Shown piece after piece: positions 1 through 63,261 of a stretch of DNA of 64,000 nucleotides (positions within the stretch are counted from its first letter, which is position 1; each line of letters begins with the position of its first letter). The stretch is from IMG/VR virus record IMGVR_UViG_3300020202_000078. The stretch is one strand, 5' to 3'. Origin of the DNA: a virus. The notes under the pieces were generated by a model. The model worked only from the letters and a program-made list of their open reading frames with translations. It was not told the DNA's origin and searched no databases. The position numbers and the translations under genes are program-made.

Positions 1-100
1 GATCGTGGTTCCCTTGGAACGGCCGATGCCGGGATCGCGGTCGAGGTCGTCGGCGGGGAGGGGATCGGGTTCCTGGCCGGCGGGGGGATGCTTGCTCATG
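1..100 (-). CDS. Partial host gene (N-terminus only; start ATG at 98-100 preceded by a GGAGG-like RBS; continues beyond the window edge)
   Basis: Reverse-strand ATG with RBS; translation MSKHPPAGQEPDPLP...; lies outside the attL repeat. Confidence 0.25.
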
Positions 101-186
101 GCTGGTCCTCGCGTGAGCCCACCCCGGACTCGGGCAACACCCGAGGAGAGGTTTGGTTTCGAAGACGCTTTGCGATGTGAGGGACC

Positions 187-210
187 CTTCCGATGGCTCC
201 CCGGGCAGGA
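187..210. repeat. attL: attL core (duplicated 3' end of tRNA-Asn)
   Basis: Exact 24-bp match to 63238-63261. Confidence 0.8.
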
Positions 211-331
211 ACCGCCTGGGTGTCCGCACCCGTTCACCAGTGGCCGCAAATCCCTTGCGGATCGGCCTTTCCGGCGTCTAGCGTCTCCCCGAACTGTGTT
301 TAGGTGTTCATATCAATCCGCTGCCGGATTG

Positions 332-1516
332 ATGACGGGATTTATGACGCGTCAGACCAATAAACTTTCTGCGAGGACCGTGCAGACGGCCAAGACGCCC
401 GGGCGCTTGGGCGATGGCCTGGGGCTATATCTGCACGTCGACGAGGCATTGAACAAGCGCTGGGTGTTCGTCTTCCAATGGCGCGGCCGGCGGAAGGAGA
501 TGGGACTGGGCTCGCTGCACGACGTCGGCCTCCAGGAAGCCCGCGAGGAGCGCGACAGGGCGCGCAAGCTGGTGCGGGCTGGGGTGAACCCCATCGACGC
601 CCGGAAGGCCGACAGGGGGGCTACCACGTTCGGCGCCTATGCCCTCGAAACCATCGAGGCGATCAAGGCCGAATGGACCAGCGACAAGACCGAGAAGAAC
701 TGGCGCAGCAGTCTCGAGAAGCACGCGGCGGCGATATGGGACAAGCCGATAGGTGAGGTCGGCGAGGACGACATTCTAGACGTGCTGCGCCCTATCTGGA
801 CCAGGGCGCCGGTCTTGGCGGAGAAGGTGAGGGGGCGGATTGAGCGGGTGCTTGACGCGGCCACGGCGAAGAAGCTGCGCTCTGGAGACAACCCGGCCCG
901 ATGGAAGGGCCACCTGTCCCATCTGCTTGCCAAGCGAACCGCGCTGAAGGTCGGCCATCACAAGGCCATGCCGTTCGCCGACGTGCCGGCCTTCGTTCAG
1001 GGCTTGGGGGAAAGCACCAGCGAGCGCGCCCTGGCCTGGCTGATCCTCACTGCCTCCCGCACGACGGAGGTGCGTGGCGCCACGTTCGCAGAGATCAAGG
1101 GGGACGTCTGGACGGTTCCGAAGGAGCGCATGAAGCAGCGGCGGGAACACCGGGTGCCGCTGTCCCGGCAGGCGCTAAAGCTGCTTGAGGATCTGGCGAA
1201 CGACACCCCGTTCCTATTCCCGAGCCGGAAAGAAGGGGCCTTCCTGTCGTCGGCTGCGATGGATCGGGCGCTTGAGCGGCTGGGGGTGGACGACGTCGCC
1301 ACCGTTCATGGCTTCCGGTCATCCTTTAAGGATTGGGCGACGGAGACGACGGATTTCCCCGACAGCCTCTCAGAGGCCGCCCTGGCGCACATCACCGGGG
1401 ACAAGGCCGAACGGGCCTATCGTCGGGGTGACGTGCTTCTCAGGCGGCGCGACCTGATGCAGGCGTGGGCTGACTATCTCCTTCCACCAGGGCCTCAAGC
1501 TGGGCGCGAGGAATGA
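332..1516 (+). CDS. int: Tyrosine recombinase / phage integrase (P4-type)
   Basis: N-terminal DGLGLYLHV...KRWVFVFQW arm-binding-like region; C-terminal catalytic region with HGFRSSF and AYRRGD...LMQAWADYL; track ORF 5..1516 reads through attL, so the true start is ATG 332. Confidence 0.9.
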   Translation: MTGFMTRQTNKLSARTVQTAKTPGRLGDGLGLYLHVDEALNKRWVFVFQWRGRRKEMGLGSLHDVGLQEAREERDRARKLVRAGVNPIDARKADRGATTFGAYALETIEAIKAEWTSDKTEKNWRSSLEKHAAAIWDKPIGEVGEDDILDVLRPIWTRAPVLAEKVRGRIERVLDAATAKKLRSGDNPARWKGHLSHLLAKRTALKVGHHKAMPFADVPAFVQGLGESTSERALAWLILTASRTTEVRGATFAEIKGDVWTVPKERMKQRREHRVPLSRQALKLLEDLANDTPFLFPSRKEGAFLSSAAMDRALERLGVDDVATVHGFRSSFKDWATETTDFPDSLSEAALAHITGDKAERAYRRGDVLLRRRDLMQAWADYLLPPGPQAGREE

Positions 1517-1640
1517 TCCGGCGGCCGGCTACCGTCTTGGGGACCAAGCGCCCCTCGCCGATCAGCTCGTAAATCTTCGTGCGGCCAATGCCGATGGCCT
1601 TCGCGGCTTCGTTGATATTGTAAGCCAGCTTCTCACCCAT
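1440..1640 (-). CDS. xis: AlpA/MerR-type excisionase-like DNA-binding protein
   Basis: HTH YNINEAAKAIGIGRTKIYELIGEGRLVPK; convergent with int. Confidence 0.55.
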   Translation of the reverse strand: MGEKLAYNINEAAKAIGIGRTKIYELIGEGRLVPKTVAGRRIIPRAQLEALVEGDSQPTPASGRAA

Positions 1641-2103
1641 TACCGCCCCCTTGTAGATGGATGGGGGGCATCCCGGGCTCGGCATCAACCGTCTGCGGCG
1701 ACGTCGGCTTTGCCTCCGACCCGCTGGCAGGTAAGGCCGCTAGCAGGGCGCTCAACAGGTAGCGGGCGAGTTGAGGCGCGAACGGCTGATCCGCCCGCCA
1801 GCCACGCACCGCCATGTCCTCCATCGCTTCGTTGAGCAACTCGCCTTCCCGACCGGGTTGCTTCTCCCCTACGAGGGTGAGGACAGCATCGAGTGAGGCG
1901 GTGTAGGCGGGGACGACATGGAGCGCCTTGTCACCGTCGGACGTGCGGAAGCTGAAGGTTGGTTGGCCGCCAATCGTGTGGCCCAGATGGCAGACCTTGC
2001 GGAACGTCCAGCCGTTGAGCCAAGTCCACAGGCGGGCATCCGACTCCCGATCCGGCCCGTTGGCTTCTTCCACCCGAGCCCGAAGGTCAGCTAGGTCGGT
2101 CAT
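1633..2103 (-). CDS. Hypothetical phage protein (C-terminus SPQTVDAEPGMPP coincides with repeat copy A)
   Basis: ORF in the coupled minus operon. Confidence 0.5.
   Translation of the reverse strand: MTDLADLRARVEEANGPDRESDARLWTWLNGWTFRKVCHLGHTIGGQPTFSFRTSDGDKALHVVPAYTASLDAVLTLVGEKQPGREGELLNEAMEDMAVRGWRADQPFAPQLARYLLSALLAALPASGSEAKPTSPQTVDAEPGMPPIHLQGGGNG
1683..1723. repeat. 40-bp repeat copy A (GGGGGGCATCCCGGnnCGGCATCnACCGTCTGCGGCGACG)
   Basis: Near-identical to 7047-7087; inverted copy at 7475-7519. Confidence 0.7.
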
Positions 2104-2713
2104 GGCTTCACCTGTTCAGGGGCCAGGGATGGGGGAGGGGCGGGGAGGGGTTGCCAGTGGGTGGGCTGAAGCTCGGCGTATTCCTGCATTCCCCAGTCGG
2201 CCACGGTGCCGTCAGTCCAGGCCCCGCGATAGTAGATCTCGTCGTTGTCGGCGTTGTATTCGCTGTCGAACTCCGCGTGCCAGCGACCCACGGTCTGAAC
2301 GAAGCCGTGTCCCTGGATCTGCTCGGCAAGCAGGACAGACGTCCCATCCTTCGGTGCCGTCTCAATCGGTTGCCATCCAGGGACCAGTGTCGAGGCCTTG
2401 GCCTCGCACGCCGCATCGGCGGTTGATGACGGACCCGGGAGGCGTTCAGAATACTTGTTGAGTACGGCGTCCGCTAGGTGTTGTTGCAATACGGGTCTGG
2501 ACCAGACGTCCATGTTGTTCCATGCTTCGCAGGCATCGTATATTACTTCTGACACTTCCTCCCTATCCAGTCCTTGAAGGCGGGAGAGGGCGGAGAGGCG
2601 CTCAATCTCGTCAATCGCTTCCGCCAGCAGCTTGTCGGTTTCGTCGCTGCTACGGTTCCACCCGAACGTGCCCATGTGTTCGCGCAACCGTCCAACCAGA
2701 TCAGAGGCGGTCA
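2100..2713 (-). CDS. DUF551-domain protein
   Basis: IETAPKDGT ... THWQPLPAPP motifs; start ATG at 2713 (MTASD). Confidence 0.6.
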
Positions 2714-2939
2714 TGGGCGGGGGCTCCTGGCTCGGTGAGGGTCGCGTAAACATCGGGATGGACATACAGCTTGCCTTGAGCGTGGTAGGCTCCAGGCTGC
2801 CGGCCGCGCACGACGCGCTGCGGATGGCCTAGTCGCTCACGGCGCTTTGCTCGGCTCGGCGAGCGGCAGGCGGACCAGTCCTCGTAGGCGACGGTGGCCT
2901 GAGCGGAGACGACGACCGGCATACCGGCGAGGTTGCTGA

Positions 2940-3119
2940 TCACGATCCGCCCCCTTCCTCTTGGTTAGAGGTGCGGGCGACGGCCTTGATGATCGCCTCG
3001 TAGGCTTCTGCCACCGACAGGTCTTCGCAGGCCCAATCCTCCAGCGCGAGGAAGACCGCATCCAAAGCAGCGGCGTCGTCCTCGATGCTCGTCGGGACCG
3101 TTGCCTTCTCACCCATGGT
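2940..3119 (-). CDS. Hypothetical small acidic protein
   Basis: ORF, operon context. Confidence 0.35.
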   Translation of the reverse strand, partial: TMGEKATVPTSIEDDAAALDAVFLALEDWACEDLSVAEAYEAIIKAVARTSNQEEGGGS

Positions 3120-3561
3120 CTTTTCCTCCCTGGGTATGGAGAGCGGAGCGGGCGCGGGTGTGGATGCGCTCAAGCAGCTTGGTCAGCAGGCCAACGCTCT
3201 CGGGGGCCGGTTGCGACAACACCGCGATGTTGCCCATCGTCCCCCTCAGTTCATCCCTTTCCCGTTGGACCTGGGATAGCTGGTCTAGGAGGTGGGGGAG
3301 GGCGTTTACGGCGGCGACGATGAGGCGGCCCGTGGCTTCGCCAACGTAGCCGACACCGGGGCCAATGGCGCAGAAGCCGCTGATCGTGCTTTGCTTCTCG
3401 TCACGGTCGCAAGGCCACCAGCCGCCGGGCTCGTCATCGTCCGTCGCCTTCTCCAGCAGTTCCCTTAGTTCGGAGAAGTCCTTGGGGGCCTCCCGGGAAC
3501 TGGCGTCATCGGTCTGTGCGGCGTTCGTCATGCTCACGCCTTCGGGCAGGTTGTCGGTCAT
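3109..3561 (-). CDS. Hypothetical phage protein
   Basis: 150-aa ORF, coupled. Confidence 0.5.
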   Translation of the reverse strand: MTDNLPEGVSMTNAAQTDDASSREAPKDFSELRELLEKATDDDEPGGWWPCDRDEKQSTISGFCAIGPGVGYVGEATGRLIVAAVNALPHLLDQLSQVQRERDELRGTMGNIAVLSQPAPESVGLLTKLLERIHTRARSALHTQGGKDHG

Positions 3562-4052
3562 GCTGCTGCTTTCAGTTCGATGCCGAGCAGTTCGCCCAGG
3601 ATTTCGAAGACGCGGGTCTTCACGGCCTGAAACTCAGGGGCCTTCATGGCGGCGTGCGATTGGCTCTTGGCGGTGTAGGTGGTCAGGACGTTGCCGCGCA
3701 GGGTGATGACGGCGTAGCTGTCCCGGCGGCGCAGGCGCTCAAGCCAGCGCTCGGCCTCGGCCCGGCTTTCACAGACCTCTTCGACGACATCGCACCAGCC
3801 GGCACGGATGAGCAGGTTCTTCCGAAAATGCTCCTCGGTCGGCCAACGGTCCTCGCCTTCGGGGAGGGTGTTGAAGCACTCGCGGATCACGGCGAAGAAG
3901 TGCCGATGGCTGGCGGGGCTGCGCTCCTCGACCGGCGCCAGGGTCACGCACTCACCTTCGCCATAAGTCTCGTTGCAGAGCCTCGCGAACCGGGGCGCCG
4001 GGCGAAACGCTCCGTCGATGAACGTGCAGGGGATCGGGCTGATCGTGGTCAT
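3558..4052 (-). CDS. Hypothetical phage protein
   Basis: 164-aa ORF; start uncertain. Confidence 0.45.
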   Translation of the reverse strand: MTTISPIPCTFIDGAFRPAPRFARLCNETYGEGECVTLAPVEERSPASHRHFFAVIRECFNTLPEGEDRWPTEEHFRKNLLIRAGWCDVVEEVCESRAEAERWLERLRRRDSYAVITLRGNVLTTYTAKSQSHAAMKAPEFQAVKTRVFEILGELLGIELKAAA

Positions 4053-4188
4053 CGGAAGTGATCGGGGGCCGCTTTTTCGGCCGCACCCCCTCCCTCACTG
4101 TGATTGTCGCCCCCGGAAAGGCCGCCAGGACCGCACGGCAGAACGCGCGGGCCTCGACCACCTCCGGGGTATCGGATAGCTTCACGGG

Positions 4189-4815
4189 TCACGCGGCGGC
4201 CTGGAGATAGCGGGCCGTCAGCTCCTCGAGCTTGGCGTCCAGTTGGGCCAGAAAGTCGGTGACCTCGGCCTCGGCTTCAGCGATGAACGCGGGGTCACGG
4301 GGAACCCGCTGAATGAACAGCCGCATGGCCTCGGGAAGCCTGGGATCGTAGCTGGCGAAGTCGCACCACGCCCGTCCGGTGCAGGCCATCTGCCACTGCA
4401 TCTGCGTGACGTACTTCGCCGGGACCGCGCCGCCCAAGAGGGTGTCGAGGTGCGTGGCCGTGTTGGGGCACTTGATCTCCAACATGCCGTCTTCGCCGAC
4501 CAGGCCGTCGGGGCTAGCGCCGGTCATGGCGATCACCGGATGATCGACGAAGCCGACCTCGACCACGTCCACGTCAGCCATGAAGGCGTAGGCGGCGCGG
4601 GCCTCCGGTTCCTTGTCGGCTCCCCACTGCATCGCGGCGTTGGTGAAGCCTTCGGTCCTCACACCAGCGAGCCTTTCGGCGATCAGCTCTGCCATGTAGT
4701 TGGCTCGGCTGGCGCTGTAGCCGGTCTTCGTCTTGGCGATCACGTCCGCTACGCGGGAGGCGGTGACCTTGCCAAGCCGGGCGGCGAACCATTCGGGGGA
4801 GCCCTGGACGATCAT
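4189..4815 (-). CDS. YqaJ-like viral recombinase exonuclease (lambda Exo family)
   Basis: GSPEWFAARLGKVTASRVADV N-terminal motif of the YqaJ domain. Confidence 0.8.
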   Translation of the reverse strand: MIVQGSPEWFAARLGKVTASRVADVIAKTKTGYSASRANYMAELIAERLAGVRTEGFTNAAMQWGADKEPEARAAYAFMADVDVVEVGFVDHPVIAMTGASPDGLVGEDGMLEIKCPNTATHLDTLLGGAVPAKYVTQMQWQMACTGRAWCDFASYDPRLPEAMRLFIQRVPRDPAFIAEAEAEVTDFLAQLDAKLEELTARYLQAAA

Positions 4816-5693
4816 TTCGCGGCCTTTCGCTTGGCTTCGAGCGCCTTCATGACCTTGTCGAAGTCGCGGGCCGGGATCGCGGCGATACTTTCGGCCTTGA
4901 TGTAGGCCAGGAACCGCTTCCGATCGGCGCCCACGTCTTCCATGAGGGCCTGAACCTCGGCTTGCTGATCCTCCGAAAGGCCGGCGGGATCACCGCCGCT
5001 CTTGCCGTCATCGTCCTCGCCACGGCTGGTGATGTTCAGCAGGGCCATTGCGGTGTAGCGCTTGCCGTAGCTGGTGCTGGAGCCGACCGCCTGGACAGCG
5101 TTCTTGCTGCCGGTGCTGTCATGTGGAAGGGTGATTGTCGTCTCTTCCTGGTGGCCCGCGCTGTGCGACAAGATGCCGGTGACGATGATCTTGCCGTCGG
5201 CGGCGAGGCCCGTGCGGAAGGACAAGGCGAAGCCATGTTCGGACAGGGCCGGGCGGATCGCCTCGTTAATATCCTCCCACAGCGCGTAAGGGGTGGAGTG
5301 GCCCTGCTTGCCGTCCTTTGCGGGAACGATGATCCTGCCGCGCTCGGTGATGACCGGAAGCTTGGGTTGCATGGCGGCCAGCGCTGCGGCATACGCGGCC
5401 TTCGCGTCCCGGTCGCTGATGCGCTCGTACATGTCGAGCAACCGCCCCAGCTTCTCGACATCGGTGTTGGGGTCGGCGGCGGCCCGGCTGATGACCTCCA
5501 TGATGGTCGCCGGGTTGGTCTGGACGACCTCGGCGGCTACGGCGGTAGCGGTGTCTCGTTTGGCGACGGCGCCCATCGGGCTCTCCTCTTCGGGTTGATG
5601 TTCGATCTCGCAGGCCAGCAAAGACGGTTGAAACTCCGCGACGGTTTGGGGATCTTCGTAGGGCTGCATCGGCAGGCTCCGGTCTCTGGCCAT
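4812..5693 (-). CDS. erf: ERF-family single-strand annealing protein
   Basis: Adjacent to and coupled with the YqaJ exonuclease; ERF-like core with YGKRYT; acidic C-terminus. Confidence 0.6.
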   Translation of the reverse strand: MARDRSLPMQPYEDPQTVAEFQPSLLACEIEHQPEEESPMGAVAKRDTATAVAAEVVQTNPATIMEVISRAAADPNTDVEKLGRLLDMYERISDRDAKAAYAAALAAMQPKLPVITERGRIIVPAKDGKQGHSTPYALWEDINEAIRPALSEHGFALSFRTGLAADGKIIVTGILSHSAGHQEETTITLPHDSTGSKNAVQAVGSSTSYGKRYTAMALLNITSRGEDDDGKSGGDPAGLSEDQQAEVQALMEDVGADRKRFLAYIKAESIAAIPARDFDKVMKALEAKRKAAK

Positions 5694-5893
5694 TACGGAG
5701 AGCCTGTTGACGGCTTGGTCGGCTTCAGCCCGAAGAACTCGGGATCGCGAGCCATGATGGAAAAGACGTCGCCGTAGGGCAGACCGAGGCGTTCATGGAC
5801 CATCGCCCAATGCGCGCCATCCGACAGGCCAAGCGCCTCAGTCTCGTCGAGGACGACCTTCACGGCTTCCTTTGAGAGGGTTCGTCTGGCCAT
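5693..5893 (-). CDS. Hypothetical small protein
   Basis: ORF coupled to erf. Confidence 0.4.
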   Translation of the reverse strand: MARRTLSKEAVKVVLDETEALGLSDGAHWAMVHERLGLPYGDVFSIMARDPEFFGLKPTKPSTGSP

Positions 5894-6198
5894 TACGGGG
5901 TCTCTGGAATGGAGGGCTTGCGGCGAAGCGTGAAGCCGAGACGGTCGGCGAGCTTGCGAAGCAGGGCTTCGTCGCAATCGCCGCACGAGCCGTAGCCAAG
6001 CGTCCGCATCGTGTTGCCGCCGAAGGCCACGACCTGCATCCCGCTCGAATGCATGGGCTTGCCGACCTTCACGCCAATGGCGGTGTTGCCGCCCTCTCCG
6101 GTTCTGACGTGATGCGCGATGGCGGCACCGGCCGTGCCGTTAGCCTCCAGCTCGTGAACCATGTCGTTCAGGATGAGGGCGGGGGTGTTCAGGCCCAT
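5893..6198 (-). CDS. Hypothetical Gly/His/Cys-rich protein (possible metal-binding)
   Basis: 101-aa ORF with GYGSCGDCDE. Confidence 0.45.
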   Translation of the reverse strand: MGLNTPALILNDMVHELEANGTAGAAIAHHVRTGEGGNTAIGVKVGKPMHSSGMQVVAFGGNTMRTLGYGSCGDCDEALLRKLADRLGFTLRRKPSIPETP

Positions 6199-6300
6199 CG
6201 ACGGGGCTCCTTAGTGGAATGGTTGACTCTGTGTTTCGTTGTGTGCAGATTGCACCCATGTTTAGCAGTCGTCAACACACATTGTGCGCGGAGTGCATAC
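6199..6300. promoter_or_regulatory. Divergent promoter/operator region with palindromes (gtgcagattgcac; gttgac...gtcaac)
   Basis: Intergenic region between the minus operon and the plus-strand RHH gene; inverted repeats. Confidence 0.45.
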
Positions 6301-6483
6301 ATGGCGGATGAAAGGCGAGACGCCGCGATCTCCTTGCGGACTTTCCGGTCCCTGAAGGATTGGGTGGAGGCCGAGGCCGCTGCTGAGGGCCGCACCGTGG
6401 CGCAGTTCGTCGAACGCGCGCTGGTGGCGCTCAAGCAGTCACGAACCGCCGAGTCCTCACCCCCCGCCAAGCCCAAACCCTGA
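6301..6483 (+). CDS. Ribbon-helix-helix (CopG/Arc-like) DNA-binding protein
   Basis: RTVAQFVERALVALK; lone plus-strand gene embedded in the minus operon. Confidence 0.5.
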   Translation: MADERRDAAISLRTFRSLKDWVEAEAAAEGRTVAQFVERALVALKQSRTAESSPPAKPKP

Positions 6484-6502
6484 TAGATCCAACCCCCGGC
6501 CA

Positions 6503-6682
6503 TCACAGGAGCCCCTCAGGCTTCCACGCCAGGACAGCAGCCAGGACCAGGAACAGGACCGCCGCCACGATGAAAGGCGGGGCCACCAGGGCAGCCAGGA
6601 ACTTGAACAGGGGCGCTTCCTCCTCAGGTGCGTTCAGACCAGCGACATCCACCGTGCCGGGCTTGAGGGGGGAGGAGGTCAC
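6503..6682 (-). CDS. Small membrane protein (C-terminal TM)
   Basis: GTG start overlaps the upstream stop (GTGA); hydrophobic FIVAAVLFLVLAAVLA. Confidence 0.4.
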   Translation of the reverse strand: MTSSPLKPGTVDVAGLNAPEEEAPLFKFLAALVAPPFIVAAVLFLVLAAVLAWKPEGLL

Positions 6683-7023
6683 GGGATACGCTCCAGCTCG
6701 GCCAAGATGCAGGTAGTCGGGTGGGTCTCGTCGGGCCAAGTCACCCAGGCGTGGCCGGGCGCAAGGCCAATGATCTCGCCGATGGTGTGGGTTCCCGGCG
6801 GGCTATTGACCATCACAACGCGGTCGCCCAGCCGTAACGGGCGAGGGACTATTGAGTGGATGGTGGAGACGTAGGCTGAGAAGGACTCTGGCGTTCTGTC
6901 GATTGTTTGCAGCGAGACGTAGGGCTCGGGATCGCTATACCCTCGGGTTGCCGCACCAATGATCTCGCATTCAAGCAGAACCCGGTCGCCGTCTCGCAGC
7001 TTCTTCGCTTCTTCCTCAGTCAT
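6679..7023 (-). CDS. Hypothetical phage protein
   Basis: 114-aa ORF. Confidence 0.5.
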   Translation of the reverse strand: MTEEEAKKLRDGDRVLLECEIIGAATRGYSDPEPYVSLQTIDRTPESFSAYVSTIHSIVPRPLRLGDRVVMVNSPPGTHTIGEIIGLAPGHAWVTWPDETHPTTCILAELERIP

Positions 7024-7427
7024 TGGTCTCTCTCCTGAGAAGGGGTGGGGGGCATCCCGGAGGCGGCATCCACCGTCTGCGGCGACGAGGCGACACGAGA
7101 GGCCGGTGTGTTCGCTGCGGCCCGTCGCTTGGCGTCGGCGATCTTTTCGGCCAGGGCGTCGCGCTCCGCTGTCTTGGCGGCGAGGGCGGCGTCCAGTTGG
7201 TCAAAGGCCCTCGACACCGGAACCGCTTCGTCCCTCCGGTAGGGCGGCGGATCGTGGTATTCCCGCGCCTTCTCGAAGTCGAAGATGCCGGCTTGGGTGA
7301 TGTCGTCCGTGTAGCCGGCCGCGCCGCCGTCTGACGACCGACGGTGCCAACGGCTCCAATGGTGCGACCAGATCATCCACGGGCCAGCGTCGGGATTGAT
7401 CGGCTTGAACGGTTTGCGGCGGGCCAT
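7020..7427 (-). CDS. Hypothetical protein with coiled-coil C-terminus; flanked by inverted 40-bp repeats
   Basis: Start MARRKPFKP at 7427 overlaps the upstream stop. Confidence 0.5.
   Translation of the reverse strand: MARRKPFKPINPDAGPWMIWSHHWSRWHRRSSDGGAAGYTDDITQAGIFDFEKAREYHDPPPYRRDEAVPVSRAFDQLDAALAAKTAERDALAEKIADAKRRAAANTPASRVASSPQTVDAASGMPPTPSQERDQ
7047..7087. repeat. 40-bp repeat copy B
   Basis: Match to 1683-1723. Confidence 0.7.
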
Positions 7428-8071
7428 CAGCGGCTCTCCTGCGAACACGGTGACGATTGCGGGTCGCCGTTTGGCGTCGCCGCAGACGGTTGATGACACT
7501 CCTGGGATGCACCCACCCCTTCCCATGCCTGAACAGTGGAGAGGGCGGAGAGGGCTGCGCGGCACTCTTCTTGGGCGGCCTTGGCTTCCTCGATATCGCC
7601 CCGATAGGGGACTGCTCCCGTCACGGCGTCGAGCGCCCAGCAAGCCCGTTGAGTGGCCTTCCTCAGAGCCTTGACCACCCCCGCATCTGGGGAGGGGAGG
7701 AGGGCGGCGGCTCTCTCAAACAGGACCGCGTCAGCTTCCATGTCCTGGGCAACGTCAGCCGGCATCGCCGCGAGCCAGTCACCGGGCTCCGAGGCGTTGG
7801 TTGCGGCCAGCGTTGCCCGTAGGTCGGCGGCACGCTTCAGCAGTCCTTCCCGTACTCCCTCTAGGGGGGTGTTGGGGGGCCTACCGTTGCTCTCGGCTGC
7901 CGTCGAAGCGCTGGTCGTATTGCTCCCAGCGTCAGGCGTCGGCGTGTTCAGGGTAGGCGCACGAAGCCGATCAGCCGCCGCCGTGTTTCGCCGAAGTTCG
8001 GCGTCTTGGTCCGCCTCCGAATGTTTCGCGCATGGATTGATATTGGAGCAGATCAGGCAACGGCGGCTCAT
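7427..8071 (-). CDS. Hypothetical protein with N-terminal Cys cluster
   Basis: CLICSNINPC; coupled. Confidence 0.5.
   Translation of the reverse strand: MSRRCLICSNINPCAKHSEADQDAELRRNTAAADRLRAPTLNTPTPDAGSNTTSASTAAESNGRPPNTPLEGVREGLLKRAADLRATLAATNASEPGDWLAAMPADVAQDMEADAVLFERAAALLPSPDAGVVKALRKATQRACWALDAVTGAVPYRGDIEEAKAAQEECRAALSALSTVQAWEGVGASQECHQPSAATPNGDPQSSPCSQESR
7475..7519. repeat. 40-bp repeat copy C (inverted)
   Basis: Reverse complement matches copies A and B. Confidence 0.65.
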
Positions 8072-8709
8072 CCCTGTTCTCCGGTGGCTTTGGCCTCGCC
8101 GAACGCGACGAACATCTCGACGGTGCGCCTGGTCCCCAAGGCCCGCTCGATGGCGCCCAACTCCTCGCGGGTGACGCCGACCCCCAGAGCCACGCGCCGG
8201 AACGTCTCCGTTCGCTCAGCGAACCGCGCGCCCCACTCGCGGCGCAGATCGTCCCAGGCGGCCGCGCTCTGCGCCTCGTGGGCTTCCTGTCCAGGGACCA
8301 GTGCCTCGCCTTGCGAGCACGCCGCATCGGCGGTCGGTGACTGATCCCGGGAGAGCCCCTCATGACATACGGTCGGGGCGGAGAGCGCGGCGTAAAGGGG
8401 CTCAACCTCCTTCTGCGCTCCGACGTTGCTGTCGGTCGTGTAGTTCCACGGCGGCGACAGGGGGCTGTCTGGATGCAGGCCGGCGGCTTCCTTGGTCCAT
8501 CTCCATCGCCAAGCCACGGGCTCCCCCTCCCTCATCGGGGAGGAGGGGGCGGCGGCAAGGGCGGCCAGCACCACGTCAACGGCTTCGTTGCGACGCTCGC
8601 GCTCCTTGCGGTCGACGGAGCCCTCACCGACATGGCCGGGGTCACGCTCAATGCCGAGGCGGCGAAGCGCGACGGGCAACGACAGGCTCTCGCCCTTCAC
8701 TTCAGACAT
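8068..8709 (-). CDS. Hypothetical protein sharing a TADAAC..LVPG segment with the DUF551 protein at 2100-2713
   Basis: 213-aa ORF. Confidence 0.5.
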   Translation of the reverse strand: MSEVKGESLSLPVALRRLGIERDPGHVGEGSVDRKERERRNEAVDVVLAALAAAPSSPMREGEPVAWRWRWTKEAAGLHPDSPLSPPWNYTTDSNVGAQKEVEPLYAALSAPTVCHEGLSRDQSPTADAACSQGEALVPGQEAHEAQSAAAWDDLRREWGARFAERTETFRRVALGVGVTREELGAIERALGTRRTVEMFVAFGEAKATGEQG

Positions 8710-8766
8710 TGGGACGCCCCGCGATTTGATGGATGGGAAGGCCGGAAGTGTGGAGTTGGAGCGCGT

Positions 8767-8949
8767 TCATGCTTTACCCGTGGCGCGGGAGATGGCGGGC
8801 TCGCAGAAGGGGCACGGGAAGCTCCCGGCGCAGCGGTCGGTCGCGTTGACGCAGACCAGCTTCACGAAGCGGCCAAGGCCATCACGGGGTGCGTGGTAGA
8901 CCGGTGCCGGCGCCTTCTCCCCTTGCGAGCGCTCTGTATGGGTATTCAT
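8767..8949 (-). CDS. Small hypothetical protein (paralog of 59352-59543)
   Basis: RBS GGGAGGA; ERSQGEK..ISRATGKA shared with the right-arm copy. Confidence 0.45.
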   Translation of the reverse strand: MNTHTERSQGEKAPAPVYHAPRDGLGRFVKLVCVNATDRCAGSFPCPFCEPAISRATGKA

Positions 8950-9035
8950 GGGTTCCTCCCGGGACTGAGGCTGGCGTCTGTGAGTGGACGCGGTGCCGTG
9001 GCCCGCGCCACCTTCGGGGGTCGGCGTGTTCGTGC

Positions 9036-9296
9036 TCACCGCTGCGCCTTCGATGGCTCAGCCACCCTCCAAACCCGGAGGCCGCCATCGACCTTGCGCG
9101 TGAGGCACCACGCCGGGCCGCCAATCATTTGCGACTGACGACGGGCAGCCAGCGTCTTCTCCGGGGGGAAAAGAACACTCGCCCCGATGGGAGACTCCAT
9201 CAGCTTCCGGATCACGCCCGCCACGCTTTCAGGGTTTCGGTGGCCGGGACCGGTGCGAGCCGGGATCGGAACGGAGGTTTCGATAGAATAGGTCAT
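9036..9296 (-). CDS. Hypothetical protein
   Basis: RBS AGGAAACAGG before ATG 9296. Confidence 0.5.
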   Translation of the reverse strand: MTYSIETSVPIPARTGPGHRNPESVAGVIRKLMESPIGASVLFPPEKTLAARRQSQMIGGPAWCLTRKVDGGLRVWRVAEPSKAQR

Positions 9297-9396
9297 TCGC
9301 CTGTTTCCTGCGAATACTGGTTGTTGGGGATGGTGCGGGCTACGGCACCGCATCCACGCTGAGGCGGTTGCTCTTGGCCCGGGAGGCACACCTTCA

Positions 9397-9756
9397 TCAC
9401 CCCCTCCCTACGGAGGAGGAGACAGACCGCGCGGGCAGGTGAAGAAACAGCTCGGGCTCTACCGGCTTGCCGCCGTACTCGACGTCTGCATCCCAGTAGC
9501 CGCCGTCGTCGGGGAACCACGCCGCGAACAGCAGGTCTCCCTTGACGGACACCAGCACGGGGTTACCGTCCTTGAGCTTGTCGGGGCACTCGCTGATCGG
9601 GCGCCAAGAGTGACGGAACTTGAACCGCCGCAGGTCGCGCAGTTCCTTGGCGTAGGGCTCGAAGGCGTCGCCTATGGCGCGGGCAAAAGCGCCGCCCGGC
9701 TTCATGGACGCCTCAAGGCCCGCACGCACGCCGTCTCCAATCGGGTCGCGTGCCAT
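9397..9756 (-). CDS. DUF551-like protein
   Basis: WRPISECPDKLKDGNPVLV...AAWF..GYW. Confidence 0.45.
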   Translation of the reverse strand: MARDPIGDGVRAGLEASMKPGGAFARAIGDAFEPYAKELRDLRRFKFRHSWRPISECPDKLKDGNPVLVSVKGDLLFAAWFPDDGGYWDADVEYGGKPVEPELFLHLPARSVSSSVGRG

Positions 9757-10017
9757 CTACCCAACCTCCGCCAGCGTGGAGACAGGGGCGGGGGGCTTGG
9801 CTGCTTGCGCAGCTTTCCACTCAGGGAAATCCGGGAAGTCGGCGGGGCGACCAGCTTGGTTCCAGGCGATGTTCCAGTGGGCGACTTCGCGCTTTGCTGC
9901 GGGACCGCGCGCCTTGCGATAGATTTCCCGCCGGCGCTGCCACTCAGGGTCGCTCATGCTGGCGATAAGCCGAGCCTGCCGAGCGGGCGCGTGCTTCCAG
10001 GCGTTTCCGACGCTCAT
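9757..10017 (-). CDS. Hypothetical protein
   Basis: ORF. Confidence 0.45.
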   Translation of the reverse strand: MSVGNAWKHAPARQARLIASMSDPEWQRRREIYRKARGPAAKREVAHWNIAWNQAGRPADFPDFPEWKAAQAAKPPAPVSTLAEVG

Positions 10018-10212
10018 CTACGCCACCGCCATTTCAGAGACGGGAGCAGCGAGGGCGCGGGCTTCCCGCCAAGCGTTCCGGTATTGGTTGTCTGGAGCGT
10101 CCCAATCACCACTCAGGCGGCGGCGAATGGTGACCTCGTGATTGTGGCGGGCGACCTCGGCGAACAGCTCGCGGTGAGCCCAGGCGAAGGCGACGTTTTC
10201 AGCGGGGGTCAT
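10018..10212 (-). CDS. Hypothetical protein
   Basis: ORF. Confidence 0.4.
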   Translation of the reverse strand: MTPAENVAFAWAHRELFAEVARHNHEVTIRRRLSGDWDAPDNQYRNAWREARALAAPVSEMAVA

Positions 10213-10477
10213 GCTGAATGTCCTTTTCCAGGTGACGGCGGGTGAGGAAGCGGACGACCTTGCCGTCTTGCTCTGCGCACATGCGAATGGAGGCGGCGAC
10301 AGCGAGAAGCCCGAAGGTGGCGCGCAGCTCGAAGGCGGCCAGCTCTGCGTCCTCGGCTAGGTTGCCCAGGCGCGCTGTTGAAGGCCCGGACCGCATGGCG
10401 GCGACCTGCTCGGCGAGGGCCATGAGCTGGCGTTCGGCGCTCTCCAGGTGGAGTTCCAGCGCGGTCATGCGCGGCAC
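10199..10477 (-). CDS. Hypothetical protein
   Basis: ORF. Confidence 0.45.
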   Translation of the reverse strand: MPRMTALELHLESAERQLMALAEQVAAMRSGPSTARLGNLAEDAELAAFELRATFGLLAVAASIRMCAEQDGKVVRFLTRRHLEKDIQHDPR

Positions 10478-10788
10478 CCTTGATGAATGGCAGCGGGTCC
10501 AGCGACGGCGCGCGTGGCCCGGCGAACGCGGGCGATGGCGTCACGAACCCGCTGGCGGGTGGTGGCGGGCTTGATCGACATGGACAGGGGCCACCGATCC
10601 GCTTGCGCGCGACGGTGCGCATCGAGGCAGATGCGGACGCCCGCTAGCGCCTGCCGGTACTCGACGCCAGCCGGGCCAAGCATCCGAAGCGTGGAGCCGA
10701 TGAAGCGGTGACCGGCCTCGGTGTGCGGGATGATGGTGACCCCGCTGAGCGTGCGCTGCGGGGCGGGGGTGTCGGTGTCGAAGGGCAT
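10465..10788 (-). CDS. First gene of the early-left operon, hypothetical
   Basis: Immediately downstream of the OL operators. Confidence 0.5.
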   Translation of the reverse strand: MPFDTDTPAPQRTLSGVTIIPHTEAGHRFIGSTLRMLGPAGVEYRQALAGVRICLDAHRRAQADRWPLSMSIKPATTRQRVRDAIARVRRATRAVAGPAAIHQGCRA

Positions 10789-10813
10789 CGGTCTCTCCGG
10801 GGTATGGAGAGAC

Positions 10814-10855
10814 TATGCAAAACGCATATTACAGCGTCAAGTGCAAAATGCATAT
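10814..10855. promoter_or_regulatory. OL-like operator pair (TATGCAAAACGCATA palindrome and TGCAAAATGCATAT)
   Basis: Same motif recurs twice at 12336-12378 next to cI/cro. Confidence 0.65.
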
Positions 10856-10895
10856 TTCGTCATGATAGGGGTCGGACAGCGATTGGGAGGTAGGG

Positions 10896-11621
10896 TTGAT
10901 GATCTGGGCTTTGGTCGCCGCCGAGGTTGTTTGCGGATCACCAGCGGACATTCCGCCACTCCCGCAAACCCACACCGACTTGGTCGTGGAGCGAAACTAC
11001 AAGGCCGGGGAGGCCGTGACGGCGGTCGTTGGCCAAACGGTGGTGCGTGCCAAGAGCTTGTACGTCACTACCTCATACAGTTGGAGCTGGGTGACGGACC
11101 GCGATGTCACGATTACGTCCCAAAAGTTCACGCTCTTCCTGCCGGCCGGCAGCAAACTCAAGAGCATGGATCGCCGCCGGAGCGCGAGCGGTGCGGTTGT
11201 CGAAATCGCTGCAGCGCGGCAGTACAGCGACAGAACAATAGCGGCCCTTCAGCTCGACGGCGCCGGCTGTGTGGCGGATCATTACGCGTTCACTCTGCGC
11301 AATGGCGCCTGGCGCGAACACAAAAATCCGACACTGTTCACGCCGGAGAAGCCGAAGCTGACGCGGCAGCTGGTGGCGACGAAAGCGTCAGTCCCTGGGA
11401 CGTTGAACTACGAGATCATCTACGTAGGCCAAGATGGGCCGTCTATCCGGTTTGAGTATCGGGAATACACAGCTGACGACCTCGCTAGGCCGGCATTCTC
11501 GCAAACCTTGGCCTATCCGAAAGGTGCCCAGCGATTCCGTTTTCGCGACGTTGCCTTTCAAGTTCTCAGTCTGAAAGATGACGAGATAACAGTTCGGATC
11601 ACGCCGTCAGAAGGTGATTAG
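10896..11621 (+). CDS. Secreted or lipoprotein-like moron of unknown function between OL and cI (candidate superinfection exclusion or lysogenic conversion gene)
   Basis: N-terminal signal-like MMIWALVAAEVVCGS; position equivalent to rexAB/sieB. Confidence 0.55.
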   Translation: MMIWALVAAEVVCGSPADIPPLPQTHTDLVVERNYKAGEAVTAVVGQTVVRAKSLYVTTSYSWSWVTDRDVTITSQKFTLFLPAGSKLKSMDRRRSASGAVVEIAAARQYSDRTIAALQLDGAGCVADHYAFTLRNGAWREHKNPTLFTPEKPKLTRQLVATKASVPGTLNYEIIYVGQDGPSIRFEYREYTADDLARPAFSQTLAYPKGAQRFRFRDVAFQVLSLKDDEITVRITPSEGD

Positions 11622-12311
11622 CGGACGCTGTTGAATAGGTCGCACTGTGTAAGACGAGACCACCACACCGATGATTTCCGGGCCGTCATCCGCGTCTCGA
11701 ACGCTATCGATCCGAATGGGTTCTTGGAACGCCGGGTCGCTGGACCTTGGCCACAGGGCGACGCCCCGCTTTTCCTTGACCACTTCCTTGAGGGTTGTCT
11801 CCACAAGCCCTCCGCGACGGCGGCGCACCACAACGTGGTCACCCTCGCGCACGCCGATTTCTGCAGCTGGGCACACCACCACCATCGTCCCGTCGGGATA
11901 ATGCTGGTCCATGGAAGGTCCACGCACCCGCAAGGCGAACAACTGGGCGCCCTCAAAGCCCGCTAGATGGATCGGGATGACTTCCGGGTCGTCGGGCTCG
12001 TCGAAGACTTCAGCGAACACGCCAGCCTGTATCACGCCGATCACGGGCACCATTCGCGTGACCGCACGCATCCCGACTGGCGGAGACGGGGGCGGCATCT
12101 CGTCCAGGTCGCCGCGTCCGTAAAGGAGCCACTCGGGGGAGACGCGGAAGAACTTGCCGTAGCGCTCGGCCCGGCCAGCCGGGATCCCCCGCAACTTCCC
12201 CTCATGCTGGCTGTAAGTCGGGTAGGGGACGCCCATCGCCTCGGCCGCTGCCTTAGCGCTAGCGTAGCCTGCGCGCTCTCGCGCCAGCCGCAGCCGATCC
12301 CCCGGTTCCAT
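11607..12311 (-). CDS. cI: cI/LexA-like repressor (XRE HTH plus S24 peptidase domain)
   Basis: HTH LARERAGYASAKAAAEAMGV; C-terminal S24 region with GPSMDQHYPDGTMVVV. Confidence 0.8.
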   Translation of the reverse strand: MEPGDRLRLARERAGYASAKAAAEAMGVPYPTYSQHEGKLRGIPAGRAERYGKFFRVSPEWLLYGRGDLDEMPPPSPPVGMRAVTRMVPVIGVIQAGVFAEVFDEPDDPEVIPIHLAGFEGAQLFALRVRGPSMDQHYPDGTMVVVCPAAEIGVREGDHVVVRRRRGGLVETTLKEVVKEKRGVALWPRSSDPAFQEPIRIDSVRDADDGPEIIGVVVSSYTVRPIQQRPLITF

Positions 12312-46397: not shown

Positions 46398-49300
46398 TTG
46401 CAGGTGACAATGGAACGCAACGGGCCTCCGTTCGGCGCGGACGGTGACGCGCTGGTCTATGCCGGCGAGGTCGTGGCCGTCGGCTGGCGGCTTCTCGACG
46501 ACAACGATGCGGTACAGGACTACGCCAACCGCAGCTTTGCCTTGCGGGTCTTCGGAACGCTTGGCGTAACGCCGGTCAACGTCGCCGCAGAGGTCGTTGA
46601 TGACGCGGACGGTGACTATCTGCTGGCCACCCTGACAGGAGACCAGACGGCGGCCCTGGTCCCGAGCGGCCGGGCGGGCGCCGTCCTGCGTTGGTCGTTC
46701 GACGAGCTGGTGGATGGCGGTCGAAGCGTCATCGAGTCCGGCGAGTTCCGGGTGAAGATCGCGGCCGACCCTGATCTCAACGAGCCCGCCGCTGGTGCTG
46801 GAGGGGCTCCGGCCGTCATCTACAACGTCCCGGCAACGAGCCCCATCCGCACAGTGGTTTACAGCGGGGCGCCGGGGGTTAGCGCTTACGCGGCGGCCGT
46901 TTCGGCGGGCTACACAGGGACTCCGGAAGAGTTCGCGGAGGCCCTTGCTGAGAACGCAACGGCCGTTTCGGAGAACATCGCGGACATCAATGCCGCAGGT
47001 GCTACCCAAGTCGGACTGGTCAATTCAGCCGGGACTACTCAGGTCGCCAACGTCAATGCGGCGGGCTCAACCCAGGTCGCGGCCGTCAATTCCGCCGGGT
47101 CGACCCAGACGGCCGCCGTCAACGCTGCTGGGGCCGCCGCGCAGTCAGCCATTGCGGCTGACGTGGCGACCAGTGGGGCCAATGCAGCGTCGGCCGCCAC
47201 CAGCGCTGCAGACGCCGCCCTGAACGCGGCATATGCCGGCGGCGTCGGGTTCACCTTTTCGACTACCACTACCGACAGCGACCCGGGCGCGGGGAACATC
47301 CGCTACAACAACGCCACGCCCGCTTCGGTGACCTTCCTCTACATCGACGATACGGATGTAGGCGGCGGGACGGCAAGCGGCTGGGTCGACACCTTCGACG
47401 ACGTCGAGGGACCGGTGCGGGGCCAAATCTACCTAGCCGAGCCCGGCACGCTGAAATACGCGGTGTTCGACGTCACCGGCGCGGTGGTGACCGGCACCGG
47501 CTATCGCAAGGTCCCGGTGGTCTGGCGCGAGGGTTCGGCAACGCTGCCGACCAACGCCGCCCGCGTGAACCTGCAATTCACCAGGGCTGGCGTGGCGACG
47601 GGCGGTGTCGCCATGACCTTCTCCAGCACCACCACAGACGCAGACCCGGGCAACGGCAATATCCGGTTCAACAACGCGACCCTCGCTAGTGTGACGATCC
47701 TCTACATCGACCTGCAGGAGGTCGGCGGCGGTTCCATCACGGCGTGGATCGACAGCTTCGACGACGTGAACGGCGGTGTTCGGGGTCAATTGATCCTGAA
47801 TGAGCCGGCCAGCGGCAAGTTCGTGCTGTTCAACGTTACCGGTTCCATCACCGACGGCGGAGGCTACCGGAAGGTCCCGGTAACGTATGTGGCGGGATCG
47901 TCGTCGAACTTCACCAACGGCAATCGGCTGCTGCTGAGGTTTGCGCCGGCAGGGTCCGAAGCCGGCATTGCGTTCCAATTCTCGACCACCATCACCGATG
48001 CTGACCCGGGTTCAGGCTTCATTCGCTTCAACAGCGCGACCGTTACCGCCGTTACCCAGATCTTCGCCGACAACAATGCCGCTGGCGGCAATGCCATCTC
48101 CGGATGGCTGGACACCTTCGACGACGCCGACGCGGCGGTGAAGGGCCAAATCTACATCGTGGAGCCGGGAACGGCGAAGTTCACCGTCTTCAACGTGACT
48201 GGCGCCGTCCTCGACGGAACCGGCTACCGGAAGATCAACGTCGCCTGGGTGGCGGGCGTCCTGCCGACGAACAACGCCCGGGTCCTGCTGACGTTCGCTC
48301 GGTTCGGCGCTGACGCCGATGCGGCGGAGATCGCCCAAAGCGCCGATACCTACCGGTTTGGGAAGGCGCGGTATGAGGCCGAAATCGCCGAGCGGCTCGC
48401 GGCCTATCCCGCACAACAGGTCCGGCCGACGTCCTGGGTTCTGAGCGGCGTCACCTACAACGACGACGGCACGTTCACCGGGACGCCCGGCGGCACGATG
48501 ACCACCACCCTGACCGCCGCGCCGTGGGTCGATCCTGCGGCGACCCGGTATATGTACGCGGTTTCGAAGTCGGGAACGTCGGGCTCCGTTACTCTGGCGT
48601 CCAGGGCGCACGCCAGCATCGCCTACAACCCGCCGGCCGTTGAGACCGAGCCGTTCCCCGGCACAAAGAAGCTGGCGTGGGCGAACACCTCAAACGGTGG
48701 CACGACGGTTCGTGGAACGACCGTCACCAACACCATCACCTTCAACGTCGATGATACGATCTTCGAGCCCGAGGTCTGTCTGACAGACAGCCCCTTCATG
48801 CCGAGGATCATGCCCACGCTGCCGGCGGAGCCGTACATCGATCCCCGCCCGTGCTGGGAAGAGACATTTGAGACGCACCGCCGCTGGAGGAACCGCCGTC
48901 TCACCATGCGGGCGGCGGCAGAGACGAGCATCACCAAGGCGGTCAACAGCCTCTCTGGGTCGGATGCGGCTGCTGGAGACCGCTTCAATCCCAAGCAGAA
49001 CATCACCGGCCTGACTGCGCTCGGGGCCTTGGCGGATGGCGCCGTGGTTGGCCTTTGGGGCGAATGGGACAACCAGGGCTTTGGGAGCAGCGTCGGAACG
49101 GTCTCAAAGGGGTTGATCTTCATGGCGCAGCCCCAAGGGCGGCGCCGTGCCAGTTGGAGTGGCGAGACTTATAGACGCCAGCCCTGGCCTCGGATGAACG
49201 GCGACAAGGACGTCACCGATCAAACTTGGACCCTCGAAAGCGGGACCTGTTGGAAGACCACCTACACCGTCAACACCGGGACCAACCTTGCCCCGGTGAA

Positions 49301-59155: not shown

Positions 59156-59351
59156 GCCGCACTCAGGGCAGTGCTGGCCGGGGACGACCTGCGTGCAGAA
59201 GTAGTTGTCGGCGTATCCGTCTCCGCGCCGGTACTTGTGACCGCAATGCTCGCAGCCGCAGATGAAGGAGAAGTCGTTCCGATATTGATCCCACTCCTGG
59301 TCAGTGGGATCGGTCGCGGCGGGACTGAGGCTGGCGGGAGTTGGAGCGCGC

Positions 59352-59543
59352 TCATGCTTTACCCGTGGCGCGGGAGATGGCGACTTCGGCTTTGCGAATG
59401 AACGTCATGCCCTCGCGGGCGATTGCGGGGGTGGTGCTCAGCAGGGCGAAGCGGAACAGTTCCTTGACCTCGCGAAGGCTCTCCACCAGATCGGCGATCA
59501 GCTCGTCCTTCTCCCCTTGCGAGCGCTCTTTGGGCGTAGTCAT
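59352..59543 (-). CDS. Small protein paralogous to 8767-8949
   Basis: Shared ERSQGEK and ISRATGKA; flanking DNA duplicated. Confidence 0.45.
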   Translation of the reverse strand: MTTPKERSQGEKDELIADLVESLREVKELFRFALLSTTPAIAREGMTFIRKAEVAISRATGKA

Positions 59544-59761
59544 GGGGCGGTCTTCTTGACGGCAGCGGCGACCGCATCCCGATCCAGCCACAGCACCAAG
59601 CCGAGCATCTTCGTCCCCTTGAGGTCGATGGGCTGCCCCGTCCCAAAGGTGATCTTCGTGCCCTTCTTCTCGCTGTAATTCAGGTCGATGGCGCACTGGT
59701 CGAGGTTCTGAAACTGGACGTTGTCATCGCCGACGGCGAGAATGAGTTCGGACATTTTCAT
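59540..59761 (-). CDS. Hypothetical small protein
   Basis: RBS GGGAGGAA duplicated from 8951-8981. Confidence 0.45.
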   Translation of the reverse strand: MKMSELILAVGDDNVQFQNLDQCAIDLNYSEKKGTKITFGTGQPIDLKGTKMLGLVLWLDRDAVAAAVKKTAP

Positions 59762-63237: not shown

Positions 63238-63261
63238 CTTCCGATGGCTCCCCGGGCAGGA
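63238..63261. repeat. attR: attR core
   Basis: Exact match to 187-210. Confidence 0.8.

Follow-up and report, generated by a model that had tools for sequence, protein, structure and literature searches.

The 64,000-nucleotide (nt) stretch of viral DNA analysed here and called the window (IMG/VR virus record IMGVR_UViG_3300020202_000078) is an integrated temperate prophage of about 63 kb, and its leftward early operon carries a family of short GC-rich repeats at the junctions of genes and of protein domains. A first-pass annotation had noticed three copies, referred to below as A, B and C. The repeat that they share is real and far beyond chance, but the count of three was too low, since we find six robust and three probable copies. 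These copies are conserved as DNA and not as protein, and diverged copies are present in related phages. We tentatively suggest that they are junction repeats acting at the DNA level, spread and homogenised by short-homology recombination, and that they may serve as portable homology for the exchange of gene cassettes, a reading that we hold with considerable reserve.

Copies of the repeat in the window

In a repeat search of the window, copies A and B were recovered as direct copies with 89% identity over 45 nt, and copy C as an inverted copy that is 80% complementary to B and 85% complementary to A over 40 nt. A 37-nt core pattern matched two sites in the window and none in 100 shuffles, and the 16-mer ACCGTCTGCGGCGACG occurs exactly three times. 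Copies B and C had been placed at 7047-7087 and 7475-7519, and they were indeed found there in direct and inverted orientation, with B beginning at 7043. Copy A, reported at 1683-1723, lies about 20-24 nt further to the left (Table 1), and the gap within the motif, given as a variable 2 nt, spans 3 nt (GGnnnCGG).

As had been proposed, B and C bracket gene B as an inverted pair. The inverted repeat reaches about 52 nt with one 1-nt insertion or deletion (indel) per side (7036-7087 and 7475-7525), and its extension into the inner flanks was not significant (p=0.07). The whole unit measures about 490 bp rather than the 430 bp first estimated, with 387 nt between the 45-nt arms. A second inverted pair, which links the probable copies G and a1 to each other independently, is a 59-nt inverted repeat with 73% complementarity that flanks the small open reading frame (ORF) at 9036-9296.

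The first profile, made from A, B and C, picked up a weak fourth site and also matched two contigs with diverged homologues of the flanking genes, namely L011, which carries a homologue of gene B (P0004), and L025, which carries a homologue of gene A (P0012). The family alignment comprises 23-25 copies. Its consensus reads CGTCGCCGCA, 0-2 nt, GRCGG, 12-15 nt and then YCYGGGAKGCMCC, and the unit is about 38-52 bp long. In the window, members A to F are robust (leave-one-out E values from 5e-8 to 2e-4), and members G, a1 and H are marginal (leave-one-out E 0.1-0.2). The leftward early operon holds eight of these nine, between 1.6 and 9.4 kb, and H alone is found at 59.8 kb. Copy H is identical to a1 over 31 nt, and its junction consists of the tail ...SLSPGRNPQ* together with the ribosome-binding site (RBS) and ATG of the next gene.

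Conservation at the DNA level

None of the copies A, B and C is intergenic; they lie inside the 3' tails of genes A, B and C, with the next start codon 18-47 nt downstream. The end of copy B is 12-19 nt upstream of the next ATG (7023), copy C is 47 nt upstream of the ATG of gene B (7427), and the end of a1, CCCGGGAGGAACCCATG, itself provides the Shine-Dalgarno sequence and ATG of ORF 8767-8949. We call a copy F when the sense strand reads CGTCGCC...GGGATGC, and R when it is reversed; copy A, in which the consensus CGTCGCCGCA...GGGATGCC is read on the minus (sense) strand, has F orientation.

Translations confirmed that A and B encode C-terminal peptides of the SPQTVDA..GMPP type in unrelated proteins (...SPQTVDAEPGMPP in the tail of A and ...SPQTVDAASGMPP in that of B), and that C is read on the opposite strand and in a different frame (...GASQECHQPSAAT). 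At least three reading frames are used by the family, with SPQTVDA, VAADGSDTSGMH, HPG..ADAAT and SQECHQPSAAT as examples. Since both orientations and at least three frames occur, conservation is at the level of the nucleic acid and not of the protein, in agreement with the first-pass annotation. All window copies except the intergenic G lie in open frames of unrelated ORFs and are translated in frame; translation simply runs through the repeats, yielding harmless Ser/Pro/Thr/Ala/Gly-rich tails, heads or linkers.

Read 5' to 3' along the operon, the window copies are ordered G(R) a1(F) E(R) C(R) B(F) F(F) D(R) A(F), and those of L025 are ordered R R F R F R F F R. In 13 of 17 cases a copy and its neighbour point in opposite directions (p=0.025, post hoc). 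Written in bracket notation, the orientations give ()(())() in the window and (()()())( in L025; this nested, balanced pattern was not significant (Fisher p=0.10), and no partner-specific similarity was seen between nominal partner copies in L025.

Single copies were also examined for structure and for transcription signals. Folding of individual copies on both strands was no better than that of shuffles (z -0.6 to +1.2), RNAalifold gave zero conserved pairs for 23 copies, and Rfam returned only tRNA and the small RNA (sRNA) CC0196 in a gathering-threshold scan of the window, and one chance-level snoRNA match in an E-value scan of 1400-9600. An RNA element within a single copy was rejected on these grounds. 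A promoter scan of positions 1-12000, with the caveat that it uses the E. coli consensus, found one site, outside the repeats, and a terminator scan found nothing terminator-like inside them. The best conserved part of the repeat is the block YCCCGGGAKGC, which is kept across otherwise diverged sub-families.

Extent of the family

Conservation in related phages, on which the first-pass annotation had made its interpretation depend, was looked for and found. Diverged members are present in related metagenomic phage contigs (nine in L025, three in L011 and one in L038), and two weak candidates occur in L060. Despite their differing orientations and reading frames, at least 20 copies are recognisable across four phage lineages.

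In a control of 88 kb of related GC-rich phage loci no match was better than E=0.4, and 80 Erf-carrying viral contigs (1.02 Mb) contained zero family members, with a best E of 0.31. Pattern scans gave no match in 185,579 species genomes, 0, 8 chance-like and 0 matches in viral contigs, and five chance-like matches in metagenome contigs; of 25 loci found with a sub-family pattern, one, on L038, was a true member. As the hits are limited to related contigs, the controls are clean and the scans gave nothing convincing apart from L038, we conclude that the family is real, that it is confined to a narrow phage clade, and that it is not a host repeat.

Searches with the surrounding sequence were similarly sparse. 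Positions 1-12000 of the window showed no DNA similarity to deposited phages, and in a distant search with 6950-7600 the sole matches, confined to the core of gene B, came from two Synechococcus phages. Neither a protein-based search for gene B relatives nor a search for NinB-like proteins returned anything among viral contigs. Relatives of gene A in species genomes were found on three contigs of Sphingomonadales or other metagenome-assembled genomes, all without repeats.

Similarity within a genome exceeds similarity between genomes: A, B and C are 80-89% identical to each other, and L025 has sub-families of its own. That copies are more alike inside one genome indicates conversion or amplification of copies within genomes.

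Gene junctions and repeat-encoded tails

The copies are concentrated near gene boundaries. For L025, a boundary is found within 70 nt of every one of the nine copies and within 60 nt of seven (p=0.005), and in the window six of eight lie within 70 nt. For the window alone, the enrichment at junctions was not significant by the 60-nt count (p=0.12, 8 copies); it is weak because copies D and E are located in the middle of genes, at domain linkers. These two exceptions sit exactly between domains. Copy D is preceded by the N-terminal domain of ORF 2100-2765 and followed by a DUF551 match (residues 138-211), and copy E precedes a phrog_3742 match (residues 137-206) in ORF 8068-8709. The segment just before D is, moreover, homologous to the end of a stand-alone gene of L025 (8137-8676), which stops right after its own copy of the repeat ('...TADAACVAEATTLVPGEEGQS*').

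Homologous genes without the repeat end before the position where it would begin, and it follows that the repeat-encoded tails are additions to genes. The last 30 or so residues of gene B are encoded by the repeat, and this tail is missing in four of five homologues (P0002, P0003, P0005 and P0006); in the fifth, P0004 on L011, a diverged repeat copy is present. Likewise, the closest homologue of gene A (P0008) ends in ...LSALEGDDA, without the tail. Gene A and L026 are homologous as DNA up to position 1734 of the window, which is the point where L011 and L025 take over with inverted, element-type homology (1666-1739).

From phage to phage, the same element is attached to genes that are not homologous. 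On L011, the gene B homologue has the tail SGRSEATSPQT, which resembles the tail of gene A in the window (SGSEAKPTSPQT) and not that of gene B. In addition, homology islands of 57-90 nt occur at junctions of otherwise unrelated genes. Positions 5100-5188 of L025 correspond to 7510-7425 of the window and cover the repeat, the RBS and the next start codon, and positions 7070-7149 correspond to 3561-3482, an 81-nt island at copy F with the start codon and 25 residues. In several pairs, similarity fades gradually past the core into the RBS and start codon.

Islands at gene junctions are also seen with sequences from outside the repeat family. Positions 8752-8797 match 59337-59382 at 98%, and 8913-8952 match 59507-59546 at 88%; the two small minus-strand paralogues concerned (8767-8949 and about 59352-59540) have only these DNA ends in common and differ in their middles, a further example of genes that keep their termini but swap what lies between. 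Gene C shares its first 30 residues (MSRRCLICSNINPCAKHSEADQDAELRRNT; window 7983-8071, L028 849-937) with P0017 and P0018, at 80% DNA identity. These two proteins, of which P0018 has a YAcAr domain, are otherwise unrelated to gene C, and the N-terminus of gene C looks like a Cys-rich module exchanged below the level of the gene. Finally, the phrog_3742 domain, of about 64 residues, is among the few protein segments common to both repeat-bearing phages (residues 143-206 of window ORF 8068-8709 and 165-228 of L025 7070-8140, 56% identity).

The prophage and its early operon

A 63-kb metagenomic contig, L001 (ENA ERZ27252495), joins position 63261 of the window to position 187 via a 24-bp overlap. 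This contig is an excised or circular form linking both ends of the prophage, so that the latter is about 63 kb long and was evidently active in the sampled community. Samples that carry this phage are ERZ27252495, ERZ27257319, SRR7004197, SRR7003766, SRR7004196 and JGI 3300021062. The prophage is inserted in tRNA-Asn, and the Caulobacter sRNA family CC0196 flanks it, so the host is probably Caulobacter-like. Every gene of the early operon is on the minus strand, and the genes overlap tightly from a cI-like gene (about 11.6-12.3 kb) onwards. Features of the window are listed in Table 1.

Table 1. Repeat copies, genes and prophage boundaries in the window (F and R, orientation of the repeat; LOO E, leave-one-out E value).
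Feature	Position	Strand, orientation	Description
Copy A	1659-1703	(-), F	gene A 3' tail; 18 nt upstream of xis ATG (1640); LOO E 1.3e-7
Copy B	7043-7087, extended 7036-7087	(-), F	gene B 3' tail; left arm of B/C inverted pair
Copy C	7475-7519, extended 7475-7525	(+), R	gene C 3' tail; right arm of B/C pair
Copy D	2406-2445	(+), R	ORF 2100-2765, inter-domain linker ...PGPSSTADAAC...; LOO E 2e-4
Copy E	8317-8356	(+), R	ORF 8068-8709, inter-domain linker ...SPTADAAC...; LOO E 1e-4
Copy F	3485-3524	(-), F	N-terminal residues 13-25 (TNAAQTDDASSREAP) of ORF 3109-3561; LOO E 4e-5
Probable copy G	9331-9390	(+), R	right arm of second inverted pair; intergenic; LOO E 0.1
Probable copy a1	8950-9010	(-), F	left arm of second inverted pair
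Probable copy H	59765-59797	(-)	gene junction near right prophage end
Gene A	1633-2103	(-)	156 aa, no known family; C-terminal tail encoded by copy A
Gene B	7020-7427	(-)	135 aa, no known family; bracketed by copies C and B
Gene C	7427-8071	(-)	214 aa; tail encoded by copy C
Small ORF	9036-9296	(-)	86 aa, no family; bracketed by G and a1
Tyrosine integrase	380-1516	(+)	
xis	1440-1640	(-)	HTH_17 excisionase-like gene; directly downstream of copy A
DUF551 protein	2100-2765	(-)	early operon
NinB-like protein	3558-4052	(-)	early operon
YqaJ/RecE-like recombination exonuclease	4189-4815	(-)	likely Erf partner; PF09588; phrog_149, 8e-51
Erf-like single-strand annealing protein	4812-5693	(-)	PF04404; phrog_155, 9e-49
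attL core	187-210		24 bp, CTTCCGATGGCTCCCCGGGCAGGA; second copy 63238-63261 (attR) = 3' end of tRNA-Asn
tRNA-Asn	63245-63320	(-)	
Caulobacter sRNA family CC0196	63391-63450	(-)	Rfam; just outside prophage

Within the prophage, ARAGORN called a tRNA-Trp (31300-31379) and a tRNA-Ile (62454-62541). The Rfam tRNA model at gathering threshold confirmed neither, and these calls may be false or atypical. The late region contains three tandem 87-nt repeats at 29331-29591 and a fourth at 29940-30026, 435 nt further on (63-72% identity), and their probable product is a protein module of 29 residues that is repeated. At 47238-48248, three units of about 360 nt stand in tandem (61-73% identity), and these probably encode repeated domains of a tail or fibre protein.

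Discussion

Among the functions offered by the first-pass annotation, whose observation was essentially right but incomplete, a recombination site is the best supported, and a homing site found no specific support. The family itself, its distribution, orientations and reading frames, its positions at junctions and the lack of the tails in homologues are observations, and the role of recombination is inferred. According to the interpretation that we favour, and which we put forward with caution, short-homology recombination in the course of lytic growth would copy short patches from one gene junction to another and homogenise them. The patches would then give a few dozen bp of homology by which gene cassettes could be inserted, replaced or fused between related phages. 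The operon's own Erf, YqaJ-type exonuclease and NinB-like mediator could provide the recombination machinery; Erf and Red-beta can recombine sequences that are short and diverged, the shortest segment for efficient pairing being 23-27 bp (PMC3945230). The two inverted pairs, C...B around gene B and G...a1 around ORF 9036-9296, would represent the two flanks of inserted single-gene cassettes, and such an arrangement would persist insofar as recombination between the arms inverts the segment and does not delete it. The mostly opposite orientation of neighbouring copies would be expected if direct neighbours tend to delete the DNA between them.

Similar repeats are known from other phages. In T4-type phages, the promoter-early stem-loops (PeSLs) are repeats that mediate shuffling of single-gene cassettes (PMC2839356, PMC4122927). 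Like the repeats described here, PeSLs are short and lie between small early genes without known function in a plastic region, where recombination is held to insert, delete or swap single-gene cassettes. However, PeSLs are intergenic, AT-rich sigma-70 promoters with a terminator stem-loop and a single orientation, whereas the present repeats are GC-rich, occur inside ORFs and in both orientations, and show neither a promoter-like signal (by the E. coli consensus) nor a terminator-like signal or stem-loop. The unrelated adjacent genes gp67 and gp68 of mycobacteriophage Island3 have their last 18 or so codons, about 50 bp of DNA, in common, and this has been read as a site of homologous recombination (PMC3029335). 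Here too, gene ends of about 50 bp are shared at a site of gene insertion or deletion, but ends of the Island3 type are single direct pairs, in contrast to a multi-copy family with inverted members, sub-families and inter-domain copies. The 'linker sequence' idea for lambdoid phages is similar in that gene ends are shared at mosaic junctions. The ORF-embedded, two-orientation form of the junction repeats known from plastic phage regions is new.

Several observations weigh against our favoured interpretation. We saw no recombinant, and the signs of shuffling are indirect, coming from mosaicism. Six metagenomic contigs, independent of each other, match the window here at 100% identity, without a deletion or inversion variant. 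The longest exact identity between copies is 21 nt (A/C), which is shorter than the Red-beta pairing segment. Simple exchange between collinear genomes leaves the origin of the inverted copies unexplained. The family is absent from the 80 Erf-carrying contigs, which implies that Erf alone does not generate such repeats, and the related contigs available for comparison number four or five and are mostly short. Moreover, the conservation of YCCCGGGAKGC hints at a sequence-specific constraint, e.g. a binding or cleavage site, which a recombination model does not need.

It is conceivable, though in our view unlikely, that the repeats are instead a selfish miniature element, which a dedicated transposase, nuclease or retro-copying process would insert at tolerated sites and which would be translated in frame. 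The identity of A, B and C is sharply bounded at 45-52 nt inside unrelated flanks, the element is missing in homologues, and copies occur in both orientations, several per genome and more alike within than between genomes, always compatible with an ORF and at ends or linkers. In-frame insertion is documented for the Rickettsia palindromic elements (RPEs), which are translated within unrelated protein-coding genes of alpha-proteobacterial hosts (PMC10969869). The repeats studied here likewise lie in frame within unrelated ORFs, at positions compatible with protein function. RPEs, however, are chromosomal, palindromic and about 100-150 bp long with a conserved encoded peptide, whereas our repeats are 38-52 bp long and non-palindromic, use at least three frames and are restricted to a phage operon. 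[quoted passage not shown] No target-site duplication was visible by eye at the ends of B or C, where the inverted repeat runs to 7036 and 7525 with no direct duplication beyond. No transposase-like gene was found in the annotated parts of the phage, no copies turned up in host-type genomes, and the gradual similarity beyond the core into the RBS and start codon misfits a discrete element.

The MITE-like module that had been proposed fares no better at the level of the whole C-gene B-B unit, which is present once, and gene B occurs in L007 and L008 without flanking repeats. MPME1 and MPME2 are ultra-small mobile elements of mycobacteriophages (PMC3029335). What the C-gene B-B unit has in common with them is that it is borne by a phage, measures about 440-490 bp and has one small ORF between terminal inverted repeats. 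The inverted repeats of MPMEs measure 11 bp. Furthermore, MPMEs are near-identical copies with their own ORF and a 6-bp addition at insertion, whereas here each inverted pair brackets a different gene, each unit has one copy, and homologues of gene B occur without repeats. An element of the MPME type was accordingly rejected: the two inverted pairs hold gene B and ORF 9036-9296, respectively, and no second copy of either unit exists.

An unlikely explanation, too, is that the repeats are sites for a clade-specific DNA-binding protein, such as a repressor, a stoperator-type roadblock or a nucleoid-like silencer, which modulates transcription or DNA organisation. The blocks GCCGCA..GRCGG and YCCCGGGAKGC are kept across sub-families while the spacer drifts, the sequence TCCCGGGA is an 8-bp palindrome of which all four window occurrences fall inside family members, the copies (with the exception of H) are confined to one operon, and the family is restricted to a narrow phage clade. 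On the other hand, the two blocks, by a count made by hand, are 16 to 19 nt apart, with indels, a single transcription unit contains copies of both orientations, no copy lies in an immunity or operator region, the separate blocks are not above chance elsewhere in the window, and no candidate binding protein was identified. Stoperators of the cluster A mycobacteriophages are repressor-bound sites of 13-14 bp with an orientation bias relative to transcription. They resemble our repeats in being an asymmetric site that recurs many times along an operon, at the junctions of its genes, but the present repeats are about 40 bp long, have both orientations, and are at most candidates for binding. The Caulobacter CIR repeat is a further point of comparison in a host of the probable kind. 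It is strictly intergenic, contains a CcrM (GANTC) site and is chromosomal, whereas the repeats here include intragenic copies, have no GANTC in A, B or C, and are without a match in the species genomes.

Slightly less probable is that the copies are functionless scars, remnants of past duplication or recombination of coding tails with no present role. No promoter, terminator, structure or Rfam family was found in the copies, and the tails are dispensable in homologues, as would be expected of scars. Nevertheless, 20 or more copies in four lineages are still recognisable across orientations and frames, and homogenisation within genomes implies ongoing exchange and not passive decay.

A function at the RNA level is improbable. 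Opposite copies within the polycistronic transcript (C-B and G-a1) could pair and loop out single genes, and thereby act as RNase III processing or stability signals. Predicted duplexes reach -90.9 kcal/mol for C-B and -89.5 kcal/mol for G-a1, compared to about -44 to -48 (standard deviation about 5) for shuffles, neighbouring copies tend to be oppositely oriented, and the layout R...gene...F recurs around gene B in L011 and around L025 8673-9008. Such stability, however, follows trivially from any inverted repeat. The nominal partners in L011 and L025 are diverged and are not mutual best matches, copy A pairs with C about as well as B does, and compensatory changes were not seen. Because both arms are within translated ORFs, ribosomes would unwind them, and the balanced-bracket pattern, as stated above, is not significant.

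More doubtful still is a gene-capture device, so far unrecognised in phages, that acts within ORFs and resembles an integron, in which an enzyme recognising YCCCGGGAKGC would move genes or domains bracketed by a 5' R and a 3' F copy, with the cassettes nested in one another as brackets are. Finally, Int/Xis arm-type sites or sites for an invertase that flips the B-C segment are very improbable: copy A does adjoin xis and int, and B and C are inverted around the 387-nt segment, but arm sites, which should cluster no more than a few hundred bp from the attP core, are not supported, as the att core (187-210/63238-63261) is 1.46 kb from A, 3.4 kb from H and about 6.8 kb from B and C. In addition, the integrase of L025, which also carries the family, is organised differently, no invertase was found in the annotated parts, all six independent contigs have the same orientation, and inversion would turn gene B antisense.

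It is a long-running question whether phage mosaicism comes from illegitimate recombination on which selection then acts, or from exchange that is guided by homology at short conserved junctions. The early operon described here adds to that question a multi-copy junction repeat that is embedded in reading frames, next to genes for an Erf/exonuclease system in the same operon, and of which related phages have diverged copies at equivalent and non-equivalent junctions. For annotation, our results carry a warning, since what these small proteins carry as C-terminal tails, N-terminal heads and linkers is derived from the repeat and does not represent functional peptide motifs. If the repeats were shown to recombine, they would constitute a compact natural example of portable homology arms in an alpha-proteobacterial temperate phage, with the arms driving the shuffling of genes and domains, gene fusions included.

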